This document shows, one piece after another, positions 1,596-54,619 of a stretch of DNA of 64,000 nucleotides. The stretch's first letter is position 1, and the number at the start of each line of letters is the position of its first letter. The translations under genes and the position numbers were made by a program. Location of the stretch: NCBI RefSeq assembly GCF_055900595.2, contig NZ_CM148325.1; one strand, written 5' to 3'. The notes beneath the pieces were generated by a model that was not told where the DNA came from, did no database searches, and worked only from the letters and a program-made list of their open reading frames with translations.

Positions 1596-3311
1596 TTACT
1601 TCAGCGGCGAACGGTTACGATCAATGCCGTAGCGTTCGATCTCTTTATACGGCACGGTTTTTGACTGGCGCTTGCGCACATCAACCAGCGTCACACGGTC
1701 GGTACAGGAGTAGCAGGGATCAAGGCTACCGATAATCAGCGGTGCGTCAGAAACGGTATTGCCGCGCAGCATGTAACGCAGCACTGGCCAGTTGGCGTAG
1801 GTGGCGGCACGACAGCGCCAGCGGAACAATTTTTGGTTATTACCGAGCATGCTCCAGTGCACGTCTTCACCGCGTGGCGCTTCAACAAAGCCCAGCGCGA
1901 ATGCGTGAGGTTTATAGCTAAAGCCTTCGGTCAGCAGTGGGGTATCCGGCATGTTGTCGAGGGCAAATTCCAGCATTGCCAGCGAATCAAACGTCTCTTT
2001 GACACGGACCATCACGCGGGAGAAGACATCGCCGCCGGTAAAGGTAAACAGCGTTTTTGGAATATTGCCGTAGTCGGCGTAGGGGTGATCAAAGCGCAAA
2101 TCACGGGCAAAACCACTGCCACGGATCAGCGGCCCTACGGGGCTATAATCACGGGCGATTTGTCGGTCGAGAATGCCAATGCCCTGAGTGCGTTGTTCCA
2201 TATTCGGCGTGGCAAGCAGCATCTCTACCAGCTCCGACACGTCGGCGCGCATCTCGCGCACCAGTTTCATCGTTTGCAGACGTTGCTCTTTGAGAATATC
2301 GCGGCGAACACCACCAATCAGATTCAGACCGTAGGTTTTACGCGACCCGGTCAGCAATTCCGCCATCGTCATCGACTTTTCCCGCACGCGGAAAAATTGC
2401 ATAAAACCGGTATCAAAACCAACAAAATGGCAGGAGAGGCCAAGATTGAGCAAATGACTGTGCAGCCGTTCGACTTCCAGCAGAATCGAACGAATGGTAT
2501 GCGCTCGTTGTGGCACCTCAATCCCCAGTGCATTTTCAACCGAGTTGGTATAGGCCACACTGTGGGCAAAACCGCAAATCCCGCACACGCGGTCCGACAA
2601 GAAGGTCACTTCGTTGTAGCCCATCCGCGTTTCTGCCAGTTTCTCCATGCCGCGATGGACATAAAACAGGCGGTAATCAGCATCGACAATTTGCTCGCCA
2701 TCCACAAACAAGCGGAAGTGACCTGGTTCATCGGAGGTGATATGCAGCGGGCCAACAGGGATCACCCGCGCATCGCTGTTGCCCTCGTTGATAAACGGAT
2801 ACGTTTCGGTATCAGTCGTCGGTTCAGGGCGCAGTCGATAATCCATCGCGTCTTTGCGCAGCGGATGCATATCTTCCGGCCAGTCATCGGGCAACACCAG
2901 GCGACGCTGATCCGGCAGGCCAACCGGAATCAGCCCGTACATATCGCGAATTTCTCGCTCGCCCCAGACCGCGGCAGGGACGCGCGGTGTGACTGACGGA
3001 AACTCCCGACTGTCGGCATCGACCAGTGCCTTCACCACGATCCAGCATTTTTCGGCCCCTTCCATTGAAAGGGCATAATAAACCGCGTAATGACCGTTAA
3101 GTGTCCGCTCGTCGTTGCCAAACAGGACCGGAAGCCAGCCATCATGTTGATAATAAAGATAATGTACAACGTCAGGCAGCAGATTTATTTTCACCGTAAT
3201 GGTGACCTGTTCAGGCGTTTGTCGCTCTTCATCCAGCACCGCGCCGGGGAACTGCGTTTTCAGGGCGGCGAGAATCGCTTCGCCACGATTTGACGATGAA
3301 TTAACGTTCAC
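1596..3311 (-). CDS. hyfG: Hydrogenase-4 large [NiFe] catalytic subunit (HycE/NuoD-like)
   Basis: Long ORF with an N-terminal NuoC-like region and the C-terminal Ni-binding motif DPCYSCTDR. Start placed at GTG 3311..3309, which has a GGAGA Shine-Dalgarno 6 nt upstream; the six-frame ORF extends to an ATG at 3356 that lacks an obvious SD. Exact start is uncertain. Confidence 0.88.
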
Positions 3312-49745: not shown

Positions 49746-50798
49746 ATGAAAAAGACCCGTACAGCTAATTTGCACCATCTTTATCATGAACCCTTACCCG
49801 AAAACCTGAAGCTAACGCCGAAGGTCGAAGTGGATAATGTTCATCAACGGCAAACAACGGATGTCTATGAACATGCTTTGACGATTACCGCCTGGCAGCA
49901 GATTTACGATCAGCTGCATCCGGGCAAATTTCATGGTGAATTTACGGAAATTCTGCTCGATGATATTCAGGTTTTCCGTGAATACACGGGGCTGGCGCTG
50001 CGTCAGTCGTGCCTGGTCTGGCCGAATTCGTTCTGGTTTGGCATTCCGGCGACGCGCGGTGAGCAGGGATTTATCGGTTCGCAATGTCTGGGAAGCGCAG
50101 AAATAGCGACGCGCCCTGGTGGAACCGAGTTTGAATTAAGTACGCCGGACGATTACACGATCCTTGGCGTGGTGCTTTCTGAAGATGTCATCACCCGGCA
50201 GGCTAACTTTTTGCATAACCCGGAAAGGGTGCTGCATATGTTACGTAACCAGTCGGCGCTGGAAGTGAAAGAGCAGCATAAAGCCGCGCTGTGGGGCTTT
50301 GTCCAACAGGCTCTGGCGACATTTTGCGAGAACCCGGAAAATCTCCATCAGCCTGCAGTGCGAAAAGTGCTGGGGGATAATTTGCTAATGGCGATGGGGG
50401 CGATGCTGGAAGAAGCGCAGCCAATGGTGACGGTGGAAAGCATCAGTCATCAGAGTTACCGTCGGTTGCTTTCCCGCGCCCGTGAATATGTGCTGGAAAA
50501 CATGTCCGAACCGGTGACGGTGCTGGACTTGTGTAATCAACTGCACGTCAGTCGCCGCACCTTGCAAAACGCATTTCACGCTATTTTGGGCATTGGCCCG
50601 AATGCGTGGCTGAAACGCATTCGCCTGAACGCCGTGCGCCGTGAACTGATTAGCCCGTGGTCGCAAAGTATGACGGTAAAAGACGCCGCCATGCAGTGGG
50701 GATTCTGGCATCTTGGGCAGTTTGCCACGGATTATCAGCAATTGTTTGCAGAAAAGCCTTCACTGACGCTGCATCAGCGGATGCAGGAACTGGAGTGA
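49746..50798 (+). CDS. eutR: AraC-family transcriptional activator of the eut operon
   Basis: 350 aa with a C-terminal AraC-type HTH. Confidence 0.93.
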
Positions 50799-50874
50799 GG
50801 GTGAGGGCCGGATGAGGATGGTGTTTGATCCGGTCCATAGTGAAGTTACAAATTACGTTGAATTGCTATGTATT

Positions 50875-51192
50875 TTATTGCCCAACGGGATAGGCGATAA
50901 ACAAACCGACAATTGTCAAAATACACGCCAGCAGGAATACCAACATACAATTTACGCGCTTTCGCGAAATTTTAAATAAATAGCAAAATAGTGTTGTTAC
51001 CACGATCACTACCGGGATAGTCATAAAATTAATAACGATGAGTGCTATCAATCCAAAACTTGCTCCTCCACCGTGGGGAATAAAAATGTGTTCTTCAAAA
51101 TAAACTTCTATAGCAAATGCCAGCACACATCCCAGAAAACTCATATCCAGATGAGGGTGCCATTTACTTTCTTTATGTGATGTGTCTGACAT
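50875..51192 (-). CDS. Hypothetical small membrane protein (105 aa, about 3 predicted TM helices)
   Basis: ATG preceded by a GGGAG SD; hydrophobic segments FLGCVLAFAIEVYF, FGLIALIVINFMTIPVVIVVTTLFCYLF, CMLVFLLACILTIVGLFIAYPV; 40 nt downstream of and co-oriented with the 420-aa gene. Confidence 0.6.
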   Translation of the reverse strand: MSDTSHKESKWHPHLDMSFLGCVLAFAIEVYFEEHIFIPHGGGASFGLIALIVINFMTIPVVIVVTTLFCYLFKISRKRVNCMLVFLLACILTIVGLFIAYPVGQ

Positions 51193-51232
51193 TCTTAAAT
51201 GCTCCCGTGAGCAAACTGGCGCAAAATAATTT

Positions 51233-52495
51233 CTAAGATTGCTGATAAGACGTCGCTGTTGTCCGGCACTCCGGGCAGATAAACGCGTAAATTATCCCTT
51301 CGCCGTATTGTTCAATATCGGCATAATCCAGTTGCGCAAGAAACATCATTGTGTGGGAACATTGCGGACAGAGAGGATATTCCGCGTCCTGAATCCAGGT
51401 TGGATGCCCGCCAAGTTGCGAGAAAGAGACAGGTAAAAATGGGTCTGCGGCAAATAACGGTGACCTAAGGTTTCCCTGTCTCATGCTGTTTACAGGGAGT
51501 CGACGCCATTCCGATACATCATCCGGCAGCCAGGCAGGCGGGATATTTTTTGCAGACAAATGAGCGTTACCCTTTGAGTCCATGTAGCCGAAAATGGTGC
51601 TGTAGGCGGTGCAACATTCGCAAGTCACGACGCGAAAACTGCCGTTATCGCTAAGACCCGTTGCCTTCAGGTCAACGTCGAAAAGATTTGTTAGTGGCAA
51701 TGCGCAATTTGGACAGGTATCGTTGCGTTCATCAACAACACGCAAAGCTTCGCAAGACCCGGTGCTTTTCATCTCCAGATGAAAACATTGAGGAAAATAG
51801 AGATTACGCCTTTGATCTTCAGCGGTTAACTCCCAACCGGCCTCATGCGCATATTCTTCAGGCTCGATGTAAAGGGAGCTGCGCCACGGCGGTGGGCTAT
51901 TGCGCCAGTGGGCAAAACGTTCAACGACAACGTCATCCCCAATCCATGCCAGACATTGCAGAATACAATTTCTGTTTTCTGCATCATCCTCAACCCGTTC
52001 TAACAGCCTGTCGCGTACATCTGTGGGGGCGCGGTGGAAAGGCATATAAGAATCATTGTCCAAATCATCGTAAGAGATCCATTCTCTGAAATAGGCATTC
52101 AGATTCGCCTGGGTAAATGCCGCCAGACAAAGGCAAATCTCCTGAGCGAGCTTATATTCACCAGATGCAAAGCGTTCTGTGGCGTAATCAGCCATCAGCT
52201 GCGCTTGATCGGTGGTCAGTTGTTGATACAGGGCATCTGTGGGAACGGGGCAGGGAGTCCAGTCGATTAACGCATCGAATTTCCGCGGTTGGTGAATTAA
52301 TTTCAGCATGACAACCGGATCGCTTAACCCTGCAAACGCATTCACGATCTTTTTGTTTTTCTTGATATATTCGTCGTGCTCACGTTGCTGTTGGGCCTGC
52401 TCGCAGGGCATGCAGTATCCGTTAGTACGCGCTGCGGTTTCCGGAAGAATGGTTGATATACAAGCGGGGCTTTTACAGGGAATACGGTGAGTCAT
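51233..52495 (-). CDS. Hypothetical cysteine-rich protein (420 aa) with zinc-ribbon motifs and a DUF1963/YwqG-like C-terminal region
   Basis: ATG with an AAGGAG SD 8 nt upstream; N-terminal C-x4-C...C-x2-C (CKSPAC...CMPC), internal CPNC...CECC, and C-terminal GGHPTWIQDAEYPLCPQCSHTMMFLAQLDYADIEQYGEGIIYAFICPEC. Family assignment is from memory, not a search. Confidence 0.7.
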   Translation of the reverse strand: MTHRIPCKSPACISTILPETAARTNGYCMPCEQAQQQREHDEYIKKNKKIVNAFAGLSDPVVMLKLIHQPRKFDALIDWTPCPVPTDALYQQLTTDQAQLMADYATERFASGEYKLAQEICLCLAAFTQANLNAYFREWISYDDLDNDSYMPFHRAPTDVRDRLLERVEDDAENRNCILQCLAWIGDDVVVERFAHWRNSPPPWRSSLYIEPEEYAHEAGWELTAEDQRRNLYFPQCFHLEMKSTGSCEALRVVDERNDTCPNCALPLTNLFDVDLKATGLSDNGSFRVVTCECCTAYSTIFGYMDSKGNAHLSAKNIPPAWLPDDVSEWRRLPVNSMRQGNLRSPLFAADPFLPVSFSQLGGHPTWIQDAEYPLCPQCSHTMMFLAQLDYADIEQYGEGIIYAFICPECRTTATSYQQS

Positions 52496-52633
52496 AGAGG
52501 CGCTCCTTGCCTGAGGATATTAAGTCGAAAGAGATTATTATTAGATATTAGGGTGTCACTATGGCACACAAATTAAAACAGCATTAATTTTATGCCACCA
52601 ACCGAGGGTTATTTTTCTTTTATTTTCATGATA

Positions 52634-53536
<903 letters not shown>

Positions 53537-54406
53537 TTACCGCTTTCTCGAGTGTGCTTTCTGGTTGTCAAACCAGTGGAAATAACTGATCACGCCTTCG
53601 GCAATGGCTGTGGCGATTTTCTGGCGAAATGCCGCCGTGCCTAACAGCCGCTCTTCTTCCGGGTTGGTGATAAAAGAAGTTTCCACCAGCACCGAAGGAA
53701 CAGATGGCGATTTCAACACTACAAACGCGGCTTGTTCGGTATTGCGGCTGTGCAGCTTATGCACCGGCTTAATCTTCTTCAGAATATGTGAGCCGAGCGT
53801 CAGGCTGTTTTTAATAGTATCGGTTTGTACCAGATCAAACAGCACTTGTTGCAATAGGTGATCCTTGTCAGTCGCTTTTTTACCGGCAACTTCATCAGCG
53901 CGGTTTTCGCGTTCAGACAGGTATTTCGCCATTGCGCTACTTGCCCCACGGTTAGAGAGAGCAAATACCGAAGCACCGGCAGCTTTCGGGTTGGTAAAGC
54001 CATCGGCATGAATTGACATAAACAGATCTGCGCCATGTTTATGGGCGATTTCAACGCGATCGTAAAGTGGGATAAACGTATCGCCAGAACGCGTTAAACG
54101 CGCATCAATGCCATGATTACGCAAAATGGAACGGACGTTTTTGGCAATTGCCAGCACCACATGTTTTTCTTTCGAACCGTTGCGACCAATCGCCCCGGTA
54201 TCAATCCCGCCGTGGCCTGGATCGAGAACAACGACACGTTTGCCGCCGTTTTTTTTTGCTTTCGGCTTGCTGTGTCCGTTGCTGGTTTTTAAAGGTTCTT
54301 CTTTGGCGATGGCTTGCGACATTCCTGACAACGTCAGGGCAGCCAATCCGGCTTTCAGCACCTGGCGGCGCGAAGTGAGTGTTTTTAGTGGTTTAAAAGT
54401 GCTCAT
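53537..54406 (-). CDS. amiA: N-acetylmuramoyl-L-alanine amidase A
   Basis: 289 aa with a Tat signal (TSRRQVLKAGLAAL) and Amidase_3 domain. Confidence 0.94.
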   Translation of the reverse strand: MSTFKPLKTLTSRRQVLKAGLAALTLSGMSQAIAKEEPLKTSNGHSKPKAKKNGGKRVVVLDPGHGGIDTGAIGRNGSKEKHVVLAIAKNVRSILRNHGIDARLTRSGDTFIPLYDRVEIAHKHGADLFMSIHADGFTNPKAAGASVFALSNRGASSAMAKYLSERENRADEVAGKKATDKDHLLQQVLFDLVQTDTIKNSLTLGSHILKKIKPVHKLHSRNTEQAAFVVLKSPSVPSVLVETSFITNPEEERLLGTAAFRQKIATAIAEGVISYFHWFDNQKAHSRKR

Positions 54407-54619
54407 ACGGCCTGAGTTGTAATAATAAAGTTCCAGATGTTATATCGTATCGCGTAATCCGTTACGACCGTTTGCTGTTGAGAATTGTTTTACTTTTCAT
54501 TTCAATAGTTGACAACTCCCCATTATGCCACTTTTTCAACCGATTTTCGTCAGATATTGGCTAATTCGACCGTTCACGCCATAATCAGCCTTTTAACCCG
54601 CAAAAAGGTAACGAATACC

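Follow-up and report, generated by a model that had tools for sequence, protein, structure and literature searches.

The AT-rich spacer behind hemF as a probable native leader of an ancestral enterobacterial DUF1963-ypfK gene pair

Analysis of the window, a stretch of 64,000 nucleotides from contig NZ_CM148325.1 (assembly GCF_055900595.2), suggests that the AT-rich spacer behind hemF is a native leader, lying between hemF and an old, vertically inherited pair of genes that encode a YwqG/TYPP (DUF1963) protein and YpfK, a small membrane protein. A clean deletion would have removed this pair from most E. coli, bringing the stop codons of hemF and eutR to within 5 bp of each other. In the window, the spacer supplies the ribosome-binding site for the first gene of the pair.

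Position and composition of the spacer

The spacer occupies positions 52496-52633 of the window and is read, like the genes on either side of it, on the minus strand. It is preceded by hemF (52634-53533, minus strand, stop codon at 52634-52636), encoding oxygen-dependent coproporphyrinogen III oxidase (Pfam PF01218, Coprogen_oxidas, E-value 7e-136), the upstream neighbour of which is amiA (53537-54406, minus strand). It is followed on the same strand by an ORF of 420 aa (51233-52495) and an ORF of 105 aa for a small hydrophobic protein, ypfK (50875-51192), while eutR (49746-50798, plus strand) converges on ypfK, the 420-aa gene and hemF. The first-pass annotation had placed an AT-rich region of about 140 bp between the hemF stop and the start of the 420-aa gene; this region measures exactly 138 bp with a GC content of 34.8%, and both sequence strings quoted from it are present. 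The ATG of the 420-aa gene is the correct start, since it aligns with the start codons of six orthologues (seven loci in all).

The GC content of the spacer compares with 53.2% for the window, 46.0% for the whole segment of 1835 bp between the eutR and hemF stop codons (50799-52633), and 38.4% for ypfK. Only 0.86% of all stretches of 138 bp in the window are equally AT-rich, and the spacer is the AT-richest of the 23 gaps of at least 60 bp that remain after a crude masking of all ORFs that begin with ATG and reach 150 aa. Its AT-richness is real and not a product of chance. A GC content of 36% or less over 138 bp is reached at about nine further places in the window, several of which are ordinary gaps with native regulatory sequence, for example the divergent amiA/ypeA region (54372-54559). 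The AT-richness of the spacer is the usual composition of regulatory gaps in Escherichia and is no signature of foreign DNA.

At the far end of the segment, the convergent stops of eutR and ypfK are separated by a gap of 76 bp (50799-50874). It begins with a tandem GTGAGG-GTGAGG and contains an imperfect inverted repeat, GGCCGGAT...ATCCGGTCC, which lacks a T-run; no terminator was called in this gap.

Distribution of the segment in E. coli

The segment 50799-52633 is absent from 5394 of 5426 complete E. coli genomes (99.4%), and a DUF1963 gene was found at the junction in 28 (0.5%). In genomes that lack the segment the eutR and hemF stops are 5 bp apart, with GGGAG in place of the 1835 bp, as in the typical E. 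coli Combat11I9, where the junction reads TGA-GGGAG-TTA (eutR stop, 5 bp, hemF stop). In about 5,400 genomes the megablast matches set in at query base 1935, corresponding to position 52634 of the window, which is the hemF stop. Because the homology of ordinary E. coli begins exactly there, the variable segment comprises the whole of 50799-52633, including the spacer.

Where the hemF/eutR junction carries extra cargo, this differs from strain to strain and always occurs together with the DUF1963 gene. The junction of strain E7-1N7 contains a tacA-tacT (GNAT) toxin-antitoxin pair, and that of E2348/69 contains genes for a 223-aa hypothetical protein and a 1149-aa SNF2-related helicase, the C-terminal half of which matches models of ZorD/DpdE-type defence helicases. 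In WL297 and 2013C-4282, ypfK is replaced by genes for a hypothetical protein of 221 aa, a T6SS immunity protein of the Tli3 family and two TPR proteins. In some carriers the DUF1963 gene itself shows decay: E7-1N7 has ATA where other alleles carry the ATG start (positions 3195-3197 of locus L004), and the EC42405 copy contains an internal stop and is annotated as a pseudogene.

The genes flanking the junction on the hemF side are unusually polymorphic in E. coli. Pairwise dS values of hemF and amiA among the window, Combat11I9, E2348/69, WL297 and one metagenomic Escherichia sequence (L012) are 0.1-0.3, up to half of the distance between E. coli and E. albertii (0.51-0.66). The combinations of adjacent hemF and amiA alleles also differ: between L012 and Combat11I9, dS is 0.03 for amiA and 0.24 for hemF. 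Such mismatched combinations indicate recombination breakpoints near the junction.

Gene order and divergence of the DUF1963-ypfK pair

At least six further enterobacterial lineages have the pair on the downstream side of hemF. One order and orientation, amiA-hemF-DUF1963(-YpfK), is common to E. albertii, Kluyvera, Yokenella, a Klebsiella-like genome and a metagenomic Escherichia. E. albertii has amiA-hemF-DUF1963-YpfK; maeB comes next in Kluyvera georgiana and in the Klebsiella-like genome, an unclassified Klebsiella (hemF-DUF1963-YpfK-maeB), as it does in Yokenella (hemF-DUF1963-maeB). In Citrobacter sp. S2-9 an ankyrin gene is interposed, giving hemF-ankyrin gene-DUF1963-eutR, and on a Salmonella Paratyphi A contig the pair is reversed (hemF-YpfK-DUF1963). 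On that contig ypfK starts 20 bp past hemF, and a spacer of 128 bp with 41% GC precedes the DUF1963 gene; the pair appears to be widespread in Salmonella, the protein cluster there having 1074 member sequences.

Two metagenomic Escherichia sequences (L012 and L013) are 96% identical to the window. In both of them, as in Yokenella, Kluyvera and the Klebsiella-like genome (L017-L019), maeB follows directly after ypfK (in Yokenella, after the DUF1963 gene) and the entire eut operon is missing. The eut operon thus appears, on these gene orders, to be an insertion between ypfK and maeB or else to have been deleted from there, and judging from L012 and L013 there is at least one Escherichia lineage near the window that lacks eut altogether.

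Regarding divergence, the pairwise dS of the 420-aa gene is similar to that of hemF across four genome pairs. Between the window and E2348/69 the values are 0.22 for the 420-aa gene and 0.27 for hemF, and they are 0.62 and 0.54 against E. albertii, 0.98 and 1.57 against Citrobacter, and 0.10 and 0.14 against the metagenomic Escherichia L012. The dN/dS ratio is 0.16-0.33 for the 420-aa gene, 0.24-0.30 for ypfK and 0.03-0.07 for hemF; by these ratios the 420-aa gene and ypfK are under purifying selection, weaker than that acting on hemF. The GC content of the 420-aa gene is 5-9 points lower than that of hemF in every genus compared. Outside the enterobacteria, Chitinimonas and Paenibacillus have distant homologues that stand alone, neither hemF nor YpfK being nearby, so the linkage to hemF looks inherited rather than functional.

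The first-pass annotation had considered the composition of the spacer typical of acquired DNA and its promoter possibly silenced by H-NS. Such a horizontally acquired islet, with the spacer as its AT-rich edge, would agree with the low GC content of the spacer and of ypfK, with the absence of the segment from nearly all E. coli and with the variable cargo at the same junction (tacAT; the SNF2-related helicase and a hypothetical protein; Tli3 and TPR proteins). The segment also resembles an acquired islet or region of genome plasticity in that few strains carry it, its GC content is below that of its flanks, and its boundaries are sharp, lying at two convergent stops. It differs from one in that the pair occupies the same site across genera with hemF-like synonymous divergence, and in the lack of an integrase, a tRNA gene, direct repeats and homology to mobile elements. 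The ORFs of the segment include no mobility genes, no flanking repeats were found, and searches of plasmid and phage records with the segment gave no match. Of the marks of a horizontal islet that were looked for, atypical composition was found, and absence from the site in sister taxa, discordant dS and mobility signatures were not. Outside Escherichia the orthologous spacers have about 50% GC, and within the window native gaps are of comparable AT-richness.

As to the proposed silencing by H-NS, no high-affinity H-NS motif (TCGATAAATT-like) occurs in the spacer within three mismatches, and its H-NS-relevant features are confined to AT-richness and short A/T tracts. Acquisition together with H-NS silencing is regarded as very unlikely.

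The simplest reading of these results is that the pair is ancestral and was deleted by most E. coli; the presence/absence polymorphism is most readily understood as the loss of a stretch that the ancestor possessed. A far older acquisition, before these genera diverged, is possible and would be compatible with the lower GC content of the 420-aa gene relative to hemF. The presence of the segment in 0.5% of E. coli could also reflect its re-import, along with its flanks, from a divergent Escherichia.

Predicted products of the pair

The 420-aa protein has a Cys-rich segment at its N-terminus, an alpha-solenoid domain and, at its C-terminus, a beta domain of the YwqG/TYPP (DUF1963) type. The Pfam DUF1963 match covers only residues 359-406 and lies just above the cut-off; the AF2 model of the protein has a pLDDT of 94. 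This family includes B. subtilis YwqG (PDB 1PV5), and its fold is marked by a GGxP motif, a conserved Q and CxxC pairs; a role in protein-protein interaction or a chaperone-like role has been proposed for it (Burroughs & Aravind 2014, PMC4275035). The GGxP, Q and CxxC features are invariant or nearly so among 39 homologues of the 420-aa protein, which is, by its predicted domains and motifs, a member of the YwqG/TYPP (DUF1963) superfamily. It differs from the family in an additional N-terminal region of about 220 aa, made up of the Cys-rich segment and the alpha-solenoid (HEAT/ARM-like). Orthologues of the 105-aa protein carry the precomputed Pfam label PF26378 (YpfK). Searches of both proteins with PADLOC and NCBIfam gave no match, and a peptide-pattern scan of genome contigs with the 420-aa protein brought up no relatives.

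Organisation of the spacer

The 420-aa gene is preceded by a Shine-Dalgarno sequence, AAGGAG (52503-52508, minus strand), 7 nt upstream of the ATG, the GGAG core of which is kept in all Escherichia and Citrobacter alleles. Outside Escherichia the spacer could not be aligned across genera, and the conserved footprint is limited to the Shine-Dalgarno sequence and the ATG. Among the carriers, differences in the spacer cluster at about 52583-52605 and the remainder is near-identical.

Comparison with E7-1N7 divides the spacer into two parts. The hemF-proximal part A (83 bp, 52551-52633, minus strand) shares 82% identity with the hemF-tacA spacer there, and the gene-proximal leader, part B (55 bp, 52496-52550, minus strand), matches its tacT-DUF1963 spacer. 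The tacAT cassette of E7-1N7 is located exactly at the joint of the two parts, GTGACACC|CTAATATC, with TAAC microhomology. The spacer is, on this comparison, modular and has evidently been an insertion point for a toxin-antitoxin cassette. That part A might be the cassette's own promoter was tested and rejected, as the cassette occurs in one genome only and part A was seen next to hemF only. A mini-ORF in part A, ATGAAAATAAAAGAAAAATAA (MKIKEK, 52629-52609), is retained in E7-1N7 as MKINEKS; having no Shine-Dalgarno sequence and lying in AT-rich sequence, it was judged to be due to chance.

The modular structure allows a broader interpretation, in which the hemF/eutR junction would be an old balanced presence/absence polymorphism in Escherichia, the spacer a landing pad, and part A a portable promoter block for whatever cargo arrives at the joint of parts A and B. 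Part A, with a -35 element partly inside hemF, would then drive tacAT in E7-1N7 and the TYPP gene in the window. To our knowledge the TYPP and YpfK pair is unstudied because K-12 lacks it. This interpretation is considered unlikely, and the reading of the spacer as the native leader of an inherited pair is preferred.

Transcription through and from the spacer

A scan of positions 50600-53000 for intrinsic terminators found none, and none were found in four orthologous spacers. With a C/G ratio of only 1.18, the RNA of the spacer is neither C-rich nor G-poor, so that it offers no obvious Rho loading site and Rho loading is unlikely. As the spacer has no recognisable hemF terminator, it is proposed that the amiA-hemF transcript reads through into the 420-aa gene and ypfK, with a second contribution from an internal sigma-70 promoter of low strength, for which the best-placed candidate would be GTGACA-16-TAATCT with a start at about 52525. 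Such a combination of read-through and a weak internal promoter is the most likely arrangement and, as far as the sequence can tell, a rather probable one.

Within the spacer RNA, a fold prediction gives an AU-rich hairpin of 15 bp with a 7-nt loop (52561-52598, minus strand), lacking a U-run. It might be a functional element, either a terminator without a U-tract or a 3' stabiliser or processing site, fixing the 3' end of the hemF mRNA. Its 15 pairs, and the ability of each orthologous spacer to fold one hairpin with a long loop, would fit such a role. However, the fold energy of the spacer is at chance level (z = 0.07), and of six orthologous spacers that were folded all were likewise at chance except that of Yokenella (z = -2.0), with no conserved structure. 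The missing U-run and the empty terminator scan do not point to a terminator, GC pairs of the stem are lost in the E7-1N7 allele, an Rfam search (cmscan, E-values up to 1, 50500-53000, both strands) returned no matches, and nothing of the kind follows hemF in ordinary E. coli. A functional role of the hairpin is very unlikely. The suggestion that the spacer serves as the hemF 3' end holds only trivially: it contains no terminator-like element, and ordinary E. coli, with the hemF and eutR stops 5 bp apart, lacks the spacer altogether.

Regarding initiation inside the spacer, a consensus sigma-70 scan of 50600-53000 (at least 9 of 12 matches to TTGACA/TATAAT with a spacing of 16-18) found no promoters, and consensus promoter and terminator scans of the spacers of E. 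albertii, Yokenella, Kluyvera and the Klebsiella-like genome were equally negative. The -10/-35 prediction by which the first-pass annotation would have had its promoter checked therefore gave no consensus site in this region. Its claim that the spacer must contain the promoter is borne out to the extent that the spacer directly precedes a well-formed gene start, but the necessity is not, given that consensus sites are absent and the weaker candidates are matched by shuffled sequence: the best weight-matrix score within the spacer was equalled or beaten by 55% of spacer shuffles. For this reason the candidates carry no statistical weight and are hypotheses rather than findings.

Three such candidates were obtained with the weight matrix, all on the minus strand. 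Candidate P1 (TTAAGG-17-TATCAT, -35 at 52656-52651, -10 at 52633-52628) has the top score in the region and is kept in all part-A alleles; the last hemF codons contain its -35 element, and the hemF stop is directly followed by its -10 element. Candidate P2 (52558-52587) combines TTAATG, after 18 nt, with an extended -10 element, TGcCATAGT, and its counterpart in E7-1N7, upstream of tacA, has the -35 element TTGACT and a 17-nt spacer. Candidate P3 (GTGACA-16-TAATCT, -35 at 52559-52554, -10 at 52537-52532), below 9 of 12, is the one placed best; it spans the joint of parts A and B, and its predicted start at about 52525 would give a 5'UTR of about 30 nt. In E2348/69 the 420-aa gene lies behind the divergent SNF2 gene, so its promoter must be within 98 bp, and a candidate TTATCA-18-TATTAT is present there. 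The distance from the end of the candidate -10 element to the ATG is 36 nt for P3, 39 nt in E7-1N7 and 32 nt in E2348/69.

A sigma-54 reading of TGGCAT-N-TAATGC was rejected by eye, as GG and GC lie 2 nt too far apart and the sister allele has lost the GC. On the plus strand, the 3' end of hemF (52634-52662) contains TTAAAC-17-TAAACT (weight-matrix score 8.0), directed antisense into hemF, which is probably due to chance.

An internal promoter is plausible on this sequence evidence. It would be consistent with the retention of part B next to the gene where tacAT is inserted upstream, and with the stand-alone position of the distant homologues. It could also be dispensed with if the spacer were simply an intra-operonic gap of an amiA-hemF-DUF1963-ypfK transcript, providing only the ribosome-binding site. 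For this speak the co-orientation kept in all hemF-adjacent arrangements, the lack of terminators in all five spacers examined, the lack of a consensus promoter and the equality of the candidates with shuffles, and the start of Salmonella ypfK only 20 bp after hemF. The weight matrix, moreover, gave no decent candidate in the spacers of Yokenella, Kluyvera and the Klebsiella-like genome, which favours pure read-through in those genomes. Set against this are the intact gene of E2348/69, with a dN/dS of 0.33 indicative of purifying selection in spite of its position behind a divergent SNF2 gene, the length of the gap (93-138 bp), which is long for a coupled operon, and the monocistronic distant homologues. 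Read-through alone is possible but doubtful, and its combination with a weak internal promoter is preferred. A literature search found no transcript data for any strain carrying the spacer.

In its general features the spacer resembles an ordinary enterobacterial intergenic region: it is AT-rich, 138 bp long, has a strong Shine-Dalgarno sequence at canonical spacing, and combines several weak -35/-10 pairs with the lack of an upstream terminator, which would allow both read-through and internal initiation. It differs from such a region in having no hexamer pair at 9 of 12 with a spacing of 16-18, and in its mosaic make-up, parts A (83 bp) and B (55 bp) having separable histories.

Implications

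The mechanistic importance of the spacer is small, as it would be a normal intergenic leader. The wider consequence is a correction: what had been taken for an islet would be no foreign DNA but a pair of genes of enterobacterial ancestry, deleted in 99.4% of the sequenced E. coli genomes, K-12 included. AT-richness and a patchy distribution within a species should therefore not be counted in favour of acquisition or of H-NS silencing unless sister genera have been checked. The analysis also draws attention to a conserved, uncharacterised YwqG/TYPP and YpfK pair, for the study of which laboratory E. coli is unusable.
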